From Alphaproteobacteria bacterium UBA2966 (GTDB lineage Bacteria; Pseudomonadota; Alphaproteobacteria; UBA2966), in the NCBI GenBank assembly GCA_002348365.1, contig DEBC01000130.1:15224-79223 (forward strand): 64,000 bases of DNA, read 5' to 3'. The first letter of the stretch is position 1; the number at the start of each line of letters is the position of its first letter. Shown one piece after another: positions 9,214 to 34,392 of the stretch. Both the position numbers and the translations under genes were made by a program. The notes under the pieces were generated by a model, which worked only from the letters and a program-made list of their open reading frames with translations, was not told the origin of the DNA and did not search any database.

Positions 9214-9972
9214 ATTTACGCACGACGTTCGATCATCAAGCGTGTCGCCGGGCTTCCGCTTGCCGCCGTGCTGGCGGATCCGCTGCTGGCGCAGGCCGCT
9301 GCCGCGACGCTTGAGACCGTATCCCTGCGCACTTCAGGCGGCCAGGATGTTTCGGCGTCCCTCGCAAGACCTTCCGCGGCCAAGGCCCCTACGATCATGC
9401 TGATACATGAATGGTGGGGATTGAACGACCAGATCAAGGCTGTAGACCGGGAATTTGCCAACGAGGGATATCTGGCGCTCGCCATCGATCTCTATGGCGG
9501 AAAAGTTGTCTCGGTTCCTGACGATGCGCGCAGCTTTATGAAACAGGTTGATCCCGAGGTTGCAACGGATACCGTCTCCTCTTGGGTCGACTGGTTGCGC
9601 ATTCACGATCGTGGCAACGGGAACGTCGCGACCATCGGTTAGTGTTTTGGGGGCGGCTGGTCCCTGAACACGTCGCTGGCGGTGCCGGTTGATGCGACAA
9701 TCGTCTACTACGGCAATGTTACCAAGACTGCGGACCAGTTGAAGTCCCTAAAGGGACCCGTCCTCGGACACTTCGCGGCCAAGGACAAGTGGATCAATCA
9801 GAAAATGATCGATGGCTTCGAGGCGGGAATGAAAGGTGCGGGCAAAACCTTCGAGACCCACTGGTACGAGGCCAATCATGCATTTGCCAATCCAACCCAG
9901 GCCCGCTACGACGAAGCGGACGCCAAGCTGGCTTGGCAACGTACGCTCGCGTTCTTGAAGAAACACGTTTAG
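9214..9972 (+). pseudogene. dienelactone hydrolase family protein with Tat-type signal, interrupted by in-frame TAG at 9640-9642
   Basis: One frame reads ...RRSIIKRVAGLPLAAVLADPLLAQAAAA... (Tat-like), then ...MLIHEWWGLNDQIKAVDREFANEGYLALAIDLYGG...NGNVATIG*CFGGGW...ANHAFANP. The TAG sits one codon before the catalytic Cys of the G-x-C-x-G-G motif, splitting the gene into ORFs 9268-9642 and 9682-9972. There is no ATG/GTG/TTG in frame upstream of the RR motif; ATT 9214 has a GGAGG 10 nt upstream. Confidence 0.7.
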
Positions 9973-25128: not shown

Positions 25129-27852
25129 CTAGCTCGCCTTGCCGTGACAATGTTTGTATTTGCGGCCCGATTCGCAGGGGCAGGGGGCGTTGCGCGGTAC
25201 TTTCCCCCACGTACTGGGATCTGCGGGATCGAGCTTCGGCCGTTCCTTGAGCATGGTTCCCGACCCGCTGGCGGCGAGCTCCATTTCACCTTCGCCCGTA
25301 AAGGGATCGATGTGAGACTCCAGAACATCCGACGCATCTCGCTGGGCCGGTGGTGGCGGTGCGCCCTCGCGGTGCTCCATGTGGAGCTCGACATGGGCCA
25401 GAAGGTTTGTGACGTGCTCCCGCAACTCGATCAGCATTGCCTCGAATAGCGCAAAGGCCTCGCTCTTGTATTCATTCAACGGGTCGCGCTGTCCGTAGGC
25501 ACGCAGCCCGATACCCTGGCGCAGGTGATCGAGAGCCAGCAAATGTTCCTTCCAGTGCTGGTCGAGCAGTTGGAGTAGCAAATTCTTTTCAACCATGCGC
25601 CAGAGGTCGCGGCCGTAGTTGGCAGCTTTCTCGGCCATCTTGCGGTCGACTTCCTGCTCGAGGCGTTCCCAGATCTCGACGGGGCCGATACCTTCTTCAG
25701 CCGCCCAGGCAGCGATTGGCAGGTCGAGATCGAAGATCCGTTCGACTTCCGACCGCAAGGTTTCTGTCTCCCATTGCTCAGCGTAGGCCTTCTCGGGCAC
25801 GTGCCGGACGCATAGCGTCTCCACCACCTCGCGACGCATCTCCATGACATCCTCGGCAACGTCCTCTGCCCGCATTAGTTCGATGCGCTGCTCGTAGATG
25901 ACCTTGCGCTGATCGTTCATCACATCGTCAAAGCGCAGCAGGTTTTTTCGAATGTCGAAGTTGCGGGCTTCGACCTTCTGCTGTGCTTTTTCGAGCGCTT
26001 TGTTAATCCAGGGATGGATGATCGCCTCGCCTTCCTTGAGCCCAAGTTTGCGCAGCATCGAGTCCATGCGTTCGGACCCGAAAATGCGCATCAGGTCGTC
26101 TTCCAGGCTGAGGAAGAATTTTGATGAGCCGGGATCACCCTGCCTTCCGGAACGGCCACGAAGCTGATTGTCGATACGACGGCTCTCGTGCCGTTCCGTG
26201 CCGACGATAAACAGTCCGTTCACGTGAATGACGGCCTTCTTGTCATTCTCGATCTCGAGCGCGATTTCCGCGATCTTCTCTTCACGCTTGGTGTCGCTCT
26301 CGATGTTGTCTGCTTCTTGGGCAACACGCATTTCCATGTTGCCGCCCAATTGAATATCGGTCCCGCGACCGGCCATGTTCGTGGCGATGGTCACGCCGCC
26401 CAACCGCCCGGCTTGGGCGATGATATGCGCCTCCTGCTCGTGATAGCGTGCGTTAAGAACGTTGTGCTCGACACCACGCTCTTTCAACAGTTTGGCGAGG
26501 TGCTCGGACTTTTCGATCGAGACCGTGCCGACCAGCACCGGTTGCCCGGACTTCTGGCATTCCTCAATCTGATCGAGGATGGCGTCGTATTTCTCATTGG
26601 CAGTGCGATACACTTCGTCGTCTTCATCCTTGCGAACGCACGGCAGGTTTGTGGGGATAGTGATCACGTCGAGACGATAGATGTCGGCAAACTCTTCGGC
26701 CTCGGTAAGGGCGGTGCCCGTCATGCCTGCCAGCTTGTCGTAAAGGCGGAAGTAATTCTGAAACGTGATCGACGCCAGTGTCTGATTTTCCTGCTGGATG
26801 GAAACGCGCTCCTTGGCCTCCAACGCCTGGTGGAGGCCCTCCGAATAGCGGCGGCCTTCCATCATCCGGCCCGTGAACTCGTCGATAATGATGACCTTGT
26901 CATCCTTGACGATGTAGTCCGTATCGCGTGCGAACAGCTTATGAGCGCGCAGCGCCTGATTGACATGATGGACGATTGAAATATTGGCAATGTCGTAGAG
27001 CGAGCCGTGTTCCAGCTGATCGGTTTCACGCAGGATTTCTTCGACACGTTCCACACCGGCGTCCGTGAGCGATACGGCGCGCGCCTTTTCATCCGTTTCG
27101 TAATGTTCGTCCTCGAGACTGGGGATCACCTTGTCAACGGCGAGGTAGAGCTCCGAGGAGTCCTCGGCCGGTCCTGAGATGATCAAAGGCGTTCGCGCCT
27201 CGTCGATCAGGATGCTGTCCACCTCGTCGACGATCGCGAAATCGTGTCCGCGTTGGACCATGTCATCGAGCGCGAACTTCATGTTGTCGCGGAGGTAGTC
27301 AAAGCCGAATTCGTTGTTAGTCCCGTAGGTGACGTCGGCCGAGTAGGCCTCTCGCCGCTCAGAGTCATCGATGCCGTGTACAATGACGCCGACTTTCAGG
27401 CCTAGGGCTTGGTAGATGCCGCCCATCCACTCCGCATCGCGCTGGGCCAGGTAGTCATTCACGGTTACCACGTGAACGCCCTTGCCACCCACTGCATTCA
27501 GATAGACCGGAAGCGTTGCCACGAGCGTTTTACCTTCACCCGTGGCCATTTCGGAGATCTTGCCCTGATGCAGGACCATGCCCCCGAGAAGCTGGACGTC
27601 GTAGTGCCGCTGCCCCAGCGTCCGCTTTGCCGCCTCGCGTACCGTCGCAAAAGCGTCGACGAGTATGTCATCGAGGGTCTCACCCTTTTCCAGCCGTTCA
27701 CGCAGCATGTCTGTGCGCGCGCGGAGTTCGTAATCGGCAAGATCCTCGAGCTCGGGCTCGAGAGCGTTAATCGCATCGACCTTCGGCTGTAAGTCGCGCA
27801 AAATGCGCTCGTTGGCGGTGCCGAAGAACTTCTGGGCCAGCGCAGCGAACAT
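25129..27852 (-). CDS. secA: preprotein translocase ATPase SecA
   Basis: [22 protein letters not shown]...; DEAD motor and C-terminal zinc-binding tail ...[18 protein letters not shown]. Start set at ATG 27850-27852; the ORF-track upstream extension is discarded. Confidence 0.95.
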
Positions 27853-27879
27853 TGGATGTCCCTGGAATCGGAAAGGCAC

Positions 27880-27893
27880 ACGCCCTAGGGCGT
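27880..27893. promoter_or_regulatory. 14-bp perfect palindrome ACGCCCTAGGGCGT in the secA/argJ divergent intergenic region
   Basis: It equals its own reverse complement and lies 28 nt upstream of the secA start codon. Confidence 0.3.
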
Positions 27894-28050
27894 ATCGACT
27901 TGAGACATAAGGTCCGACCGGCATCCTGTCAACGGCGGTTTCTGCGCTGTTCCCGCCATAAGCGGCTTCTTGCCGCTCCTGCTCGCGCATGACATAAGGG
28001 CGGCCATCCGGCAACGTTCGAGTTTGGGTTTGTGATCGGGGGAATGTCCA

Positions 28051-29322
28051 ATGGCGCGTAAAAAGGGCGGCAAACACTCTCAGACGGGCACTCTGACCCG
28101 CTCGCCACTCGCCCGTGGACGCTTCCCGCGAATTCCCGAGGTGCAGGGCGTTCGGCTATCTTCGGTCGCGGCCGGCGTAAGGTACCGGGGCAGAAAGGAC
28201 GTCATGCTGGCAGAACTTTCGCCGGGAACAACTGTCGGCGGGGTCTTTACGCGCTCAAAGACCGCAGCGGCGCCCGTGGTGTGGTGTCGAGACAGATTGA
28301 AATCGGGCAAGGCCCGGGCCGTTCTTGTGAATGCCGGCAATGCGAACGCATTCACGGGATCCGAGGGCGTGTCTGCGGTGGCCACAGTGGCCGAGGCTGT
28401 TGCCAAGCAGGTGGGATGTCGGGCCACGGATGTGTTCATGGCCTCCACGGGTGTCATCGGTGAACCGCTGCCCCACGATCGCATCACGCAGGCGCTTGGC
28501 AGGCTGCAGCGGGGATTGTCAGGGACGTCGTGGCGCGCCGCTGCGGAAGCCATTCGTACGACAGATACCTTCGCCAAGGCGTCATCCGCGGTCGCACATA
28601 TCGACGGCAAGCCGTATGTTATTGCGGGCATCGCCAAAGGATCCGGCATGATTGCACCGGATATGGCGACAATGCTGGCATTTCTGTTCACTGATGCCCG
28701 GCTTCCGGGCGACGTGCTCCAAAAGCTGACCGTCGCCGCGAATCGCGTATCGTTCAACGCGATCTCCGTTGACGGAGACACGTCGACCTCTGACACCGTG
28801 CTCACGTTCGCTACCGGAAAAGGTCCTCGTCACGCGCGCATAAAGTCCGCTTCTGACCCGCGCCTGGCAGACTTCAAGGCCAAGCTCCGTTCCGTCATGA
28901 CCAATTTGGCTCAGCAGATTGTCAGGGATGGTGAAGGGGCATCGAAGTTTGTGACGATTTCGGTAAGTGGTGCCGAATCCTCCCGAGCGGCGCGGGCAAT
29001 CGGGCTTGCCATCGCCAACTCGCCGCTTGTCAAGACAGCGATTGCCGGAAACGATCCCAACTGGGGGCGCATCGTCATGGCGGTGGGCAAGGCCGGCGAA
29101 AAGGCGGACCGTGATCGACTCAGGATCGACATCGGCGACTGGCAGATCACCGCCGAGGGTATGGTTCGCGCCGACTATGATGAATCGCCGGTCGCCCGGT
29201 ACATGAAGGGCAGCGAGATCGACATTCGGGTTGATGTCGGCGTCGGACGGGGTCGTTTCACCGTCTGGACCTGCGATCTCACGCGGGCCTACGTATCGAT
29301 CAATGCCGATTATCGCTCATAG
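28051..29322 (+). CDS. argJ: bifunctional glutamate N-acetyltransferase / amino-acid acetyltransferase ArgJ
   Basis: 423 aa; ...[15 protein letters not shown]..., autoproteolytic ATML site ([12 protein letters not shown]). Confidence 0.9.
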
Positions 29323-29364
29323 AGCGAGTTCACCTGCGAGAGCGGCGAGTTCGAAAGGGTCTCG

Positions 29365-29772
29365 ATGATGGACGTGCCCGTCCTGCTGGTGACCGCGGTT
29401 GCGCTGGTGGATGTCGATGGGCGCGTCCTGCTGGCGCAACGGCCGGCGGGCAAACCCATGGCGGGTCTTTGGGAGTTTCCCGGCGGGAAAGTGCGGGAGG
29501 GCGAAACCCCGGAGGTGGCACTGATCCGGGAATTGGGGGAAGAACTTGGGATCGATGTAACGGAGACCTGTCTGGCTCCGTTCACGTTCGCCTCGCACAC
29601 ATATGACGACTTTCACCTTCTCATGCCGCTCTTCGTCTGCCGGATATGGGAAGGCGTCGTGACGGCACGCGAAGGCCAGGAACTCAAGTGGGTGCGGCCA
29701 CAGGACATGAGCGACTATGACATGCCACCGGCCGATGTCCCGCTCGTTGCGATGCTGCGGGACCTGTTGTGA
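29365..29772 (+). CDS. mutT: NUDIX hydrolase (8-oxo-dGTP diphosphatase MutT-like)
   Basis: 135 aa with Nudix box GLWEFPGGKVREGETPEVALIRELGEELGI. Confidence 0.8.
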   Translation: MMDVPVLLVTAVALVDVDGRVLLAQRPAGKPMAGLWEFPGGKVREGETPEVALIRELGEELGIDVTETCLAPFTFASHTYDDFHLLMPLFVCRIWEGVVTAREGQELKWVRPQDMSDYDMPPADVPLVAMLRDLL

Positions 29773-29879
29773 TCGAGATCGTGAGGTGCACCGACGGGAG
29801 TAACGCGGGAGGCGGCGCCAGGCTGTAGAATATCGATTCCGCCAACATCTATCCTCATTTTGATTGGTACAGCTCAGTT

Positions 29880-30050
29880 ATGAATATCATCCGTATCGTC
29901 GTCGCCATTTTCCTTCCGCCGGTCGACGCATTTCTGACGGTCGGATTAGGCCTGCAATTCTGGTTGAACCTCATTCTCACAATCTGCTTATTCGTCCCGG
30001 GCGTTATTCACGCCCTCTGGCTGGTGGTGCGCAAAGCTCAGGACGCTTGA
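29880..30050 (+). CDS. YqaE/Pmp3 (UPF0057) family small proteolipid membrane protein, 56 aa
   Basis: MNIIRIVVAIFLPPVDAFLTVGLGLQFWLNLILTICLFVPGVIHALWLVVRKAQDA is collinear with E. coli YqaE (RIVITIILPPLGVLL...IPGLIHAFWV). Below the ORF-track size cutoff; the track instead lists an Arg-rich ORF in another frame. Confidence 0.7.
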   Translation: MNIIRIVVAIFLPPVDAFLTVGLGLQFWLNLILTICLFVPGVIHALWLVVRKAQDA

Positions 30051-30068
30051 CGTCGCCACGCCGCGCCG

Positions 30069-31019
30069 TCATTCCGGCTTCGCTTTGTCACCGGCAGATT
30101 GCTCGGTCGTTCCGAGGACATCGGCCAGCCGGGTCGTTGCGCTACCAGGCCGCAAGGGCTGGGGCTGAGACACATGTGGTGCCCACCCAGTCAAGGTGAT
30201 GATCTGGAACGTCGCCGGGATCCTTCCGTCGGAATCACCATGGTTTTGCTGATAGATCTCTCCTGCCCTTAGTAGGGTTTCCCGGCGTGTAAAGGTCCGC
30301 CGCCGGGTCTGGGTGGCATTGGTTTCTCCCATGCCCCGAAGATCGGTCATCAGGCGAAAAATATCCGGATAGGACACCGTCACCGAGTCTGCATCGGCGA
30401 CCGACAGCGAGAAGCGGGCCCGAGTGAGCAGGTCGCCTGCGTCACGCACGTCGAGAAAGGGCGAGACCCTCGGACCCGCGCCGCCTTCGACCTCCGTTTC
30501 GGCCTGGAGGAGTGACTCGCGCAGTTCCCACAAGGTGTCACCCCCGAACAGCGTGGCCAGAAACAATCCGTCGGGTTTCAGCGTACGATTGAGCTGTGCC
30601 AGCGCTCCGGGAAGATCGTTGGTCCAGTGCAGCACCAAATTACTGAGAACAATATCGAAACTCGCGGGAGCGAAGGGTACGGTTTCTTCGTCTGCCACGA
30701 TGCATGCGGAAGGCTGGGCATTTGACGAGATGAATGAAGGTGCCAGACTTCGAACCATCCCCCATGAAGAGTCCGTCTGAACGAGTTCTTCGATGCCGCC
30801 GCGTCCGTGCAAGAGGCTTGCGAGCAAGCCATTCCGGCAACCAACATCGAGGCCGAACGGGAACTTCCGAGTGACATCATCGAGGCGGTCGAGCAGCCCG
30901 TCAGCAGCCATGCGCATGAGAAATTCATGATCCGCTGGCATGAGGGCCGCTCTGTCACGATGTGCCCGGACGGCCACCCGATCGAAAACCGAAGGAAGTC
31001 CCGAAATTTCTTCGCCCAT
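30069..31019 (-). CDS. class I SAM-dependent methyltransferase (conserved neighbour of comF in alphaproteobacteria)
   Basis: 316 aa with methyltransferase motif I (LDVGCRNGLLASLL) and post-I region. Confidence 0.6.
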   Translation of the reverse strand: MGEEISGLPSVFDRVAVRAHRDRAALMPADHEFLMRMAADGLLDRLDDVTRKFPFGLDVGCRNGLLASLLHGRGGIEELVQTDSSWGMVRSLAPSFISSNAQPSACIVADEETVPFAPASFDIVLSNLVLHWTNDLPGALAQLNRTLKPDGLFLATLFGGDTLWELRESLLQAETEVEGGAGPRVSPFLDVRDAGDLLTRARFSLSVADADSVTVSYPDIFRLMTDLRGMGETNATQTRRRTFTRRETLLRAGEIYQQNHGDSDGRIPATFQIITLTGWAPHVSQPQPLRPGSATTRLADVLGTTEQSAGDKAKPE

Positions 31020-31142
31020 TCCTTCTATATGACATGTCGTATCCGCGCGCCAAAGCGGTACGCCATTCTTGAAGGAAGTGAGAGCCCCGCTCTTGTTGTC
31101 TCAGTTGATGCGATGATTTCCCCAAATGATGCGATGACTTGA

Positions 31143-31904
31143 ATGCGTGTCCTGATCAACGGTTCGGGGCCGCTGATGCGTGCCGTTCTGGATGTCGTCT
31201 TCCCGCCGCGCTGCGTGGGGTGCCGCCGGTTCGTCGACCCTCAAGGCGATCTGTGCCCTGCGTGCTGGAAAAGTTTGAATTTCATCGAAGGGGCGGTCTG
31301 AGCAATCTGTGGTTTTCCGTTCGAGGTTGACGTCGGAGAAGGAACCCTGTGCGGATCCTGCGTGCGCCGGCGGCCTGCATTCGCGCGGGCGCGGTCCGTG
31401 CTCCGCTACGACGAAGGGAGTCGTGAACTCATTCTGGCTTTCAAGCATGGCGACCGCACCGAACTTGCCGTGACACTCGGATCGTGGATGGTTCGTACTG
31501 GTGCTCGTCTCGTAGAAGAATGCGATGCCGTGGTGCCGGTGCCTCTCCATCGGCGACGATTGTTCTTGCGCCGCTTCAACCAATCGGCCTTGCTGGCCTA
31601 CGGCGCGATGTCGGGAAAACGGGGTCCGCCGATACTCCCCGGTGCACTTCAACGCCGACGCAATGACCCGACCCAATCAGGCCGAAGTGCTGCTGCCCGT
31701 CGCGCCAACGTCGCGTCTGCCTTCATGGTTCCCCGCCGCTACCGGGATCGTCTCGCCGGTCAACAGATCTTGCTCATTGACGACGTCTCCGCGACGGGAG
31801 CGACAGTGAACGCGTGTGCAAATACTCTACTTGGCGCGGGGGTCAGAGAGGTTTCCGTTCTCACGCTGTGTCGAGTTGTCCGGGGCAATTCCTACTCTAT
31901 ATAG
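31143..31904 (+). pseudogene. comF: ComF-family phosphoribosyltransferase-domain protein, interrupted by in-frame TGA at 31299-31301
   Basis: One frame reads MRVLINGSGPLMRAVLDVVFPPRCVGCRRFVDPQGDLCPACWKSLNFIEGAV*AICGFPFEVDVGEGTLCGSCVRRRPAFARARSVLRYDEGSRELILAFKHGDR...LLIDDVSATGATVNACANTLLGAGVREVSVLTLCRVV. The TGA falls where the first Cys of the second CxxC zinc-ribbon pair is expected. Confidence 0.7.
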
Positions 31905-32037
31905 TCTTGCTGTTCTTTCGCCGGATCGCTCTTTCCGTGCGGACTTGAAGGAAAGAATTGAGGTCAGGGTGCGAACGTTTCTGCGCAAATTGCTCGGGCT
32001 GGCACCATCCGTTTCGACGAATCCAGAGGGATCCGCC

Positions 32038-32301
32038 ATGTCGAACATCGTTCTCTACACCACCATGTTCTGCCCATTTTGTACTCGCGCCAAACGCCTG
32101 TTGGAGGCGAAGGGCGTGTCCTATACCGAAATCGATGTCGGCATGGACGCGGGAAAGCGGCAGGAAATGCTGGATCGCGCGGGCGGTCGTCACACGGTGC
32201 CTCAGATTTTCATTGGCGACCGGCACGTGGGGGGCTCCGATGAGTTGGTGGCTCTGGAACAAACCGGCGATCTCGATGCGTGGATCGAGGCCGCGATATG
32301 A
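32038..32301 (+). CDS. grxC: glutaredoxin 3
   Basis: MSNIVLYTTMFCPFCTRAKRLLEAKGVSYTEIDV... (CPFC active site), 87 aa. The ORF-track upstream extension is discarded. Confidence 0.85.
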   Translation: MSNIVLYTTMFCPFCTRAKRLLEAKGVSYTEIDVGMDAGKRQEMLDRAGGRHTVPQIFIGDRHVGGSDELVALEQTGDLDAWIEAAI

Positions 32302-33167
32302 GCGGGGTTTTCAAGGCTGCCTGTGTCCAGGTCAACGCCCAGCTCGAGATTGAGGACAATGTTGCCCGCGCCATCGAACTGATCCGAGAGGCGCACTCGG
32401 CGGGTGCGGACCTCATCACGATGCCCGAGAACGTGGGGATGATGGGGCATCGCTCTCGCGATATCAGAGGCCTGGCGATGCCTGAGGCCGAGCATGTCGC
32501 ACTGGCAGCGTTTCGCGATGCGGCGCGTGATACCGGGGCTTGGCTGCTTCCCGGGTCTCTTGGGATTTCCGCTGACGACGGGCGCGTACACAACCGCTCG
32601 TACCTGATCGATTCAGACGGTGGGATTGTCGCACGCTACGACAAGATTCATATGTTCGACGTCGATTTGCCCAATGGCGAATCGTATCGCGAATCCAAAA
32701 ATTTCAAGCCCGGTGGTGACACCGTGATCGCGCCAACCCCCTGGGGCCTGCTGGGACTGACTGTCTGCTACGATGTACGTTTCCCGCACTTATACCGGAC
32801 CCTGGCCAAGGCTGGTGCCAGGTTCATTACGGTCCCTTCGGCCTTCACCAGAACGACGGGAACGGCACATTGGCACGTGTTGTTGCGTTCACGGGCCATC
32901 GAAACAGGGTGCTTTGTGATTGCCCCGGCTCAATGCGGGACGCATCCAGGCGAGCGTCAGACTTATGGCCACTCGCTCATCGTAAATCCGTGGGGCGAGG
33001 TTCTTTCCGACGGCGGAGAGAATCCAGGAATTGTCGTGGCAGAGATCGACTGCGCAAAGGTCGATGAGGCCCGCCATATGGTGCCTTCGTTGGCCCACGA
33101 CCAACCGCTACCGGAACCTGAGGTCGCTGGCCAGTCATCGGAGGTGGTTAGGCGCGCCGCCGTCTGA
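32298..33167 (+). CDS. carbon-nitrogen hydrolase (nitrilase superfamily) protein
   Basis: MSGVFKAACVQVNAQLE... with Glu-Lys-Cys triad context (...LTVCYDVRFP...). Its start overlaps the grxC stop. Confidence 0.8.
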   Translation: MSGVFKAACVQVNAQLEIEDNVARAIELIREAHSAGADLITMPENVGMMGHRSRDIRGLAMPEAEHVALAAFRDAARDTGAWLLPGSLGISADDGRVHNRSYLIDSDGGIVARYDKIHMFDVDLPNGESYRESKNFKPGGDTVIAPTPWGLLGLTVCYDVRFPHLYRTLAKAGARFITVPSAFTRTTGTAHWHVLLRSRAIETGCFVIAPAQCGTHPGERQTYGHSLIVNPWGEVLSDGGENPGIVVAEIDCAKVDEARHMVPSLAHDQPLPEPEVAGQSSEVVRRAAV

Positions 33168-33234: not shown

Positions 33235-34392
33235 TCACGCAGACAATTCCGGCAGGCGGAAGAAAAACTTGGCGCCTTTCCCGACCACCGAGTCGACACC
33301 GATTTCACCACCGTGCTGCTCGACGATCGATTTGCTGATGTTGAGACCCAGGCCGGTGCCGCCGACCTGCTGGCCACCCAGCGGGTTCGTGCGAGAAAAC
33401 TTCTCAAATATTCGATCCTTGAACTGCTCCGGAATCCCCTGCCCCTGATCGCTTGCCGATACGAGCACGGATCCGCTCTGCCTTGAAACGTTGACCTCGA
33501 AGGTGTCGCCGCGCGACGAGAATTTGACAGCGTTTGACAGTAGATTGGACATCACCTGCATCAGCCGGTCGTCATCGCCCATGATCTTCGGGCCAGGTGT
33601 GGACTCGCCTACCACGATTCCAACGCCGTATTCACTGGCCAATCCACCGCTGGCCGATACGGCACCGTTCACGAGTTCCATGATATCGAGGGTCTTGACG
33701 CGGAACTCCATCTTGCCGGCGAGAAAGGCTGCCAACGAATCCCGATCACTTACCGGGAGTGCGTCGATGCGTTCTTTGACTTTCGAATAATTCACCTCGC
33801 GGATCGAGATTGGAACGCTCTCGAACAATGTGCGGAAGCACACCTCACTTTCGCGCAGGGCATATTCGGCGGTTCGCTGCTGGGTCGTGTTGATCGCCGT
33901 GCAATGGATAAGTTGCTCTTCGCCGACATCCATCACCCTGACGGTGTTTCTGATCCAGATTCTCTCACTGTTCTTGTTGACGCCTTCGACTTCGTACTCG
34001 CTCGGTGCATATTTGCCAGCAAGCCGCGCCTTCCTGAACTCGAGCATGCGCTCGATCGCTTCGGGCGAGAACAGAATTTCGAGAGTTCCAGCAGCGATGA
34101 TCTCGGCCGGGTCGTCATAGCCGAACAGTTCGGCATAGGCCTGATTGGCATAGAGTGGTGTCCAGCCCTTGTGCACCACAATCCCCGCGCCCGAGGTCTC
34201 GACGAGTTGTTGGAATTCAACACTGCCGCCACCAACTGAAGCAAAATTCAGATCTGGCTGAGCTTCTTGAACTGAGTCATGGCTGGTGACGTTCGTCTCA
34301 AGGCACCTGGCTTCGGCCAATTCATGCTCAAGTTCCGCGATCCGCCGCTCAAGGCTGTATAGATCGGGCGCGGTATCGTGAATCGTTACCAT
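33235..34392 (-). CDS. cytoplasmic PAS-domain GHKL ATPase (histidine-kinase-like) lacking a recognisable DHp/H-box
   Basis: 385 aa with an N-terminal coiled coil and PAS domain, and a C-terminal HATPase_c with N, G1 and G2 boxes (LLSNAVKFS, DQGQGIP, GGTGLGLNISKSIV). There is no His in the ~150 residues preceding the N box. Confidence 0.7.
   Translation of the reverse strand: MVTIHDTAPDLYSLERRIAELEHELAEARCLETNVTSHDSVQEAQPDLNFASVGGGSVEFQQLVETSGAGIVVHKGWTPLYANQAYAELFGYDDPAEIIAAGTLEILFSPEAIERMLEFRKARLAGKYAPSEYEVEGVNKNSERIWIRNTVRVMDVGEEQLIHCTAINTTQQRTAEYALRESEVCFRTLFESVPISIREVNYSKVKERIDALPVSDRDSLAAFLAGKMEFRVKTLDIMELVNGAVSASGGLASEYGVGIVVGESTPGPKIMGDDDRLMQVMSNLLSNAVKFSSRGDTFEVNVSRQSGSVLVSASDQGQGIPEQFKDRIFEKFSRTNPLGGQQVGGTGLGLNISKSIVEQHGGEIGVDSVVGKGAKFFFRLPELSA

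Follow-up and report, generated by a model that had tools for sequence, protein, structure and literature searches.

The comF gene (ComF/GntX family) at 31143-31904 on the forward strand of the 64,000-nucleotide stretch of DNA analysed here (the window) is very probably a pseudogene, the product of a TGC-to-TGA nonsense mutation that became fixed and has been decaying neutrally ever since. The gene comprises 253 codons and, in the window haplotype, its translation (MRVL...FPPRCVGCRRFVDPQGDLCPACWKSLNFIEGAV*AICGFPFEVDVGEGTLCGSCVRRRP...) contains a single internal stop, a TGA at codon 53 (31299-31301, forward strand), which stands in place of the invariant first cysteine of the second of two zinc ribbons. 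The cysteine pattern reads C24-x2-C27...C38-x2-C41 and then *53-x2-C56...C70-x2-C73, so that seven of the eight ribbon cysteines remain and the TGA takes the place of the other one. The region coding for the double zinc ribbon (residues 15-73; 31185-31361, forward strand) matches positions 1-55 of the 56-position Pfam profile PF18912 (DZR_2) in an alignment that spans the stop (E 2e-17; score 63.2 bits, cut-off 27), and column 53 is cysteine in 118 of 118 aligned homologues. Translation, domain alignment and column composition thus confirm the placement of the in-frame TGA proposed by an earlier note, which had been made from the letters of the window.

The identity of the interrupted gene is not in doubt. 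A search with the window ComF returned 6915 protein homologues, many of them labelled 'ComF family protein' by their source databases, and the match to intact proteins of 251 residues reaches E 1e-104. Curated profiles score lower: the best NCBIfam models are GntX (105 bits, cut-off 304) and TIGR00201 comF (89.5 bits, cut-off 233.6), and the Pfam Pribosyltran model gives 25.2 bits, slightly below its cut-off of 26.3. Despite these missed cut-offs, sequence comparison makes homology to ComF/GntX by descent unambiguous. A search of solved structures by sequence was uninformative, yielding just a weak phosphoribosyltransferase (PRT)-related match (1vch, E 0.002). The gene lies in the order argJ, mutT (NUDIX), (pmp3), a divergent SAM methyltransferase, comF, grxC and CN hydrolase (window 28051-33167), and the order from argJ to the CN hydrolase is kept in relatives (L001, L002, L087, L109) at merely 64-85% protein identity. 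Since this arrangement is conserved among alphaproteobacterial relatives, comF occupies a housekeeping setting there rather than a competence operon.

The earlier note left open whether the TGA might reflect an error of sequencing or assembly that masks an intact gene, the window being a single metagenome-derived sequence of the kind in which single-base errors happen. Protein look-ups and a metagenome scan recovered 16 copies of comF, the window and 15 further contigs of up to 635 kb, which comprise nine haplotypes in three clades at 96-100% nucleotide identity to the window. The further copies come from a JGI Tara contig (L081), ENA Tara scaffolds (L082, L169, L172-L175), Logan assemblies (L083, L170), WGS metagenome contigs (L084-L086, L176) and the NCBI MAGs GCA_002717105.1 and GCA_002377535.1 (L168, L171), and thus represent several samples and assemblers. 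Codon 53 is TGA in 16 of 16 copies and TGY in none. These assemblies partly share raw data, with overlap in Tara Oceans, and the haplotype count is the better measure of their independence. The recurrence of the TGA in 16 copies and nine haplotypes, from differing samples, assemblers and strains, excludes an error for practical purposes and leaves that reading with a vanishing probability. One copy, L086, was considered as error-prone sequence in its own right, as it also carries a stop in pmp3; this was rejected because the same haplotype recurs on contigs of 320 kb and 635 kb.

Throughout the sampled members of this species-level population the TGA is fixed. The earlier note had anticipated that sister strains might carry a cysteine codon; in scans of genome and metagenome contigs and look-ups of the ArgJ cluster, no intact TGY allele was found among close relatives, and the population at 96% nucleotide identity or above carries TGA throughout. 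The next relatives lie across a gap, at 64-69% amino acid identity, and all of them encode cysteine. The inactivation therefore predates the point at which the sampled strains coalesce. The codon at position 53 of the orthologues is TGC, with TGT in one, making a single C-to-A change (TGC to TGA) the likely cause, and TGC the likely ancestral codon. The window ComF shares 64-68% identity with the two nearest intact clades, which share 67-69% with each other, and a relative-rate comparison with four syntenic intact loci gave no sign of acceleration on the window branch. Neighbouring genes show like divergence, with conserved synteny. Because the divergence of ComF from its intact relatives is not inflated, the knockout is recent on a genus-level scale.

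Population variation was used to assess the constraint acting on the interrupted frame. Unique substitutions pooled over the 13 non-identical loci comprise 20 nonsynonymous and 8 synonymous changes in comF (pN/pS 0.92; 36.7 substitutions per kb), compared with 34 and 59 in eight flanking genes together (accA, secA, argJ, mutT, pmp3, the methyltransferase, grxC and the CN hydrolase; pN/pS 0.11-0.31; 6-23 substitutions per kb), a difference in proportion with a Fisher p of 0.002. The nonsynonymous density in comF, 35.9 per kb, compares with 39.1 per kb for its own synonymous changes and 32.1 per kb for synonymous changes in the neighbours. Constraint like that on the neighbours would predict 3.3 nonsynonymous changes (Poisson 5e-10 for the 20 observed), whereas neutrality would predict 17.9. 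In codons 1-52, all seven population substitutions are nonsynonymous. The counts are small and coverage varies among the control genes, yet the three adjacent genes of similar coverage still show pN/pS values of 0.24-0.31. An uninterrupted frame under purifying selection, as expected of a functional ComF/GntX member, is thus absent.

Further lesions have accumulated in sub-lineages. Codon 115 (31485-31487, forward strand), TGG in the window, is TAG in five copies (L083, L085, L171, L173, L174), giving them a second stop. The four copies of clade C (L086, L168, L169, L170) have lost 60 nucleotides from the core of the PRT domain (codons 108-128; 31466-31525, forward strand) and also carry a 6-nucleotide insertion after 31389. 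In the PRPP loop, DDVxTTGAT, codons 217-218 (31791-31796, forward strand) encode A-T in the window clade, T-M in clade B and S-T in clade C, so that the Thr-Thr pair has been changed independently in each of the three clades. In the window the loop reads DDVSATGAT, with alanine for the first invariant threonine (T217A), and Thr217 is invariant in the family alignment. In vivo, H. pylori ComFC requires both its PRPP loop and its zinc-finger cysteines (PMC9005727).

The window haplotype (clade A) lacks any second disabling lesion; besides the TGA and T217A, its 253-codon frame is clean. Its deviations from conserved residues, 4 in 71 columns (3 outside the stop), lie within the family range of 1.8±1.7, and this overall count is no outlier, although two of them sit on columns that are 100% invariant. 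Judged by itself, the window copy would be indistinguishable from a functional gene that is recoded, and it is the population data that carry the case for a pseudogene. There the two hallmarks of a unitary point-nonsense pseudogene are both seen: a real, heritable disabling mutation, and a neutral pattern of substitution with further lesions. Neutral substitutions, secondary lesions and PRPP-loop changes together make a pattern unlike that of a functional selenoprotein, or indeed of any functional recoded protein.

Insertion of selenocysteine (Sec) in bacteria needs a SECIS hairpin directly 3' of the UGA. The possibility that this UGA encodes Sec, and that ComF is a selenoprotein with a Sec-for-Cys zinc ribbon, draws on two observations: the UGA aligns exactly to an invariant metal-ligand cysteine, and the in-frame TGA is conserved across many differing sequences. 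TGA/Cys pairing and conservation of the TGA across distinct sequences are the comparative filters of metagenomic selenoprotein screens, and the criteria for a SECIS element are a stable stem-loop directly downstream of the UGA and a small apical loop containing G (PMC1088965). The RNA 3' of this UGA folds with a minimum free energy of -11.1 kcal/mol over 52 nucleotides and -24.0 kcal/mol over 82 nucleotides, which does not surpass the folding of dinucleotide-shuffled controls (z +0.46 and +1.02, respectively). The corresponding 52 nucleotides of eight Cys-encoding orthologues fold more strongly (-14.2 to -23.5 kcal/mol), the window being the weakest of all, and no hairpin has been gained. An Rfam scan of 31100-31500 at E<=10 returned no meaningful match and no SECIS model. 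Folding, shuffle controls and scan therefore agree with the earlier impression that the downstream stems are weak. The remark of the earlier note that sel genes are missing from the window is borne out as well: neither these nor a tRNA-Sec turned up within the 64 kb in searches with ARAGORN, with Rfam and with precomputed Pfam assignments on gene calls, and the only tRNA is for Val and no SelA, SelB or SelD domain occurs among the gene calls.

The population data bear on the same question. The comF frame evolves neutrally, and among sister haplotypes five copies gained a TAG and four lost 20 codons. ComF is also absent from a 2026 review of prokaryotic selenoproteomes and from the GOS marine selenoproteome survey (PMC2398784). 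Of the properties of a selenoprotein gene, comF therefore shows the alignment of UGA with Cys, while it has neither a SECIS element nor selection maintaining the frame before and after the UGA. Selenocysteine, which the earlier note had raised as the alternative to a nonsense mutation, is effectively refuted by the absent SECIS, the neutral evolution of the frame and the extra stops and deletion of the sister haplotypes, and we give it almost no credence; the evidence strongly supports the other reading of that note, a TGY-to-TGA nonsense mutation truncating ComF after 52 residues.

Some function might nevertheless persist in the window haplotype, either through leaky near-cognate read-through of the UGA or through re-initiation at the GTG at 31362, producing a useful protein with the PRT domain only. 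The residual open reading frame of 180 codons (31362-31904, forward strand) that begins at this GTG encodes the PRT domain only, is intact in the window and is annotated by public gene callers (P0001/P0121); the clade A allele lacks a second disabling lesion; and the C-terminal part of comF taken alone has a pN/pS of about 0.6 rather than 1, with counts too small to tell the two apart. In other haplotypes, however, this 180-residue frame is itself hit, by the codon-115 TAG in some and by the 60-nucleotide deletion in others, and clade A itself has already lost the invariant Thr217 of the PRPP loop. Read-through that placed tryptophan at the zinc ligand probably would not restore the ribbon, and a zinc-finger cysteine mutant of H. 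pylori ComFC fails to complement (PMC9005727). Residual function of either sort is improbable, keeping a small share of our confidence on account of the clade A allele and its want of a second lesion. Less probable still, and given very little weight, is a fully working ComF with an unusual zinc-ligand residue, made in clade A because the UGA is still decoded there by a non-canonical Sec signal or by efficient near-cognate read-through; later, independent losses would in that case account for the damaged alleles of the other two clades, B and C.

Under the preferred explanation, a nonsense mutation followed by decay, the codon for the first cysteine in the second ribbon would have become a stop through one point mutation, most probably from TGC to TGA. 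Unless this stop is recoded, translation from the comF start must end once 52 residues have been made, leaving the second ribbon and all of the phosphoribosyltransferase domain untranslated. The mutation would have arisen before the last common ancestor of the sampled strains and then been fixed, after which unselected drift would have brought amino acid changes at the synonymous rate and, by sub-lineage, either another stop or the loss of 20 codons. Full-length ComF would accordingly be either not made or not functional, we infer. ComFC couples ComEC-mediated import of single-stranded DNA to its cytoplasmic handling (PMC9005727), and by homology the corresponding ComEC-linked role in uptake and handling of single-stranded DNA would here be lost or dispensable.

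The broken gene has left its mark on annotation. Besides the truncated 52-residue reading frame (31143-31301, forward strand), which appears in the list of open reading frames and holds the first zinc ribbon only, some gene callers pick an antisense frame of 191 residues (31101-31676, reverse strand) instead of comF, and antisense calls of 195-213 residues occur at the locus in L168-L174 without a Pfam match. We considered the antisense frame as a real gene and rejected it as a GC-rich shadow ORF that has no Pfam match. Both the antisense calls and the 180-residue 'phosphoribosyltransferase' are annotation artefacts of the pseudogene.

Other genes of the window are damaged as well. The dienelactone hydrolase (DLH) gene at 9268-9972 (forward strand) contains a single in-frame TAG (9640-9642) directly before the G-x-C-x-G-G nucleophile elbow (...ATIG*CFGGGW...), and the Pfam DLH model aligns over its whole length, straight through the stop (E 5e-45). 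Strain L165 (99.6% identical) has this TAG in common with the window and bears a second stop, and all three differences between the two are nonsynonymous. This gene reads as a second young point-nonsense pseudogene. The gene for a Pmp3-family small membrane protein (29880-30050, forward strand) carries a premature stop at position 29955 in clade C (L086, L168-L170) and is no longer called by gene callers in several strains. In the adjoining region, a sensor kinase (33235-34392, reverse strand) has PAS and HATPase_c domains, with HisKA not detected in the window; clade C orthologues are called with HisKA, clade B copies L083 and L085 carry a 10-nucleotide frameshifting deletion at 33523-33532, and the gene shows a pN/pS of 0.5-0.7. 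Next to comF, this kinase could be a third gene in decay. SecA (25129-28077, reverse strand) is 953 residues long in some strains and 907 in L168, L169, L171 and L175, a difference that probably reflects start-site calling and not a lesion. In a lineage that carries several young pseudogenes, the lesion in comF is unexceptional.

A unitary point-nonsense pseudogene is an already known kind of feature and is biologically ordinary. The significance of this case lies partly in its value as a false-positive example for selenoprotein prediction: it would pass both the TGA/Cys-pair and the recurrence filters, and its TGA is exposed as non-Sec solely by the SECIS test and by dN/dS within the population. 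It also documents that ComF has been lost throughout a species, an uncultured marine alphaproteobacterium that has been widely sampled, and the lesions in the DLH gene, in pmp3 (one clade) and possibly in the sensor kinase fit ongoing gene loss. From the loss of comF one would predict that natural transformation, if this lineage ever had it, is gone.

Comparison with known systems places these features in context. The gene shares its architecture with ComFC, ComF and GntX (H. pylori ComFC, Damke et al. 2022, PMC9005727; E. coli GntX), in which an N-terminal Cys4 zinc module precedes a region related to type-I PRT domains whose PRPP loop follows DDxxTTGxT; it differs from them in being stopped at a zinc ligand, in carrying T217A in that loop and in scoring under the NCBIfam equivalog and subfamily cut-offs, and its ribbon is double, with eight cysteines, where the H. 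pylori finger is single, with four. Pseudogenes of competence genes reported in work on how transformability is lost within species, as in Haemophilus influenzae (PMC2689351) and in Legionella and Acinetobacter (PMC11472951), likewise involve the inactivation of a DNA-uptake gene by point mutation or indel, segregating or fixed in natural lineages, whereas the comF lesion has reached fixation across all strains sampled from an uncultured marine species. With the selenoprotein genes of the Sargasso Sea and GOS selenoproteomes of Zhang and Gladyshev (PMC1088965, PMC2398784), comF has in common an environmentally recurring in-frame TGA at a conserved cysteine. Unlike bacterial selenoprotein genes, however, it has neither a SECIS element nor purifying selection, it has acquired extra stops and deletions, and ComF is no listed selenoprotein family.
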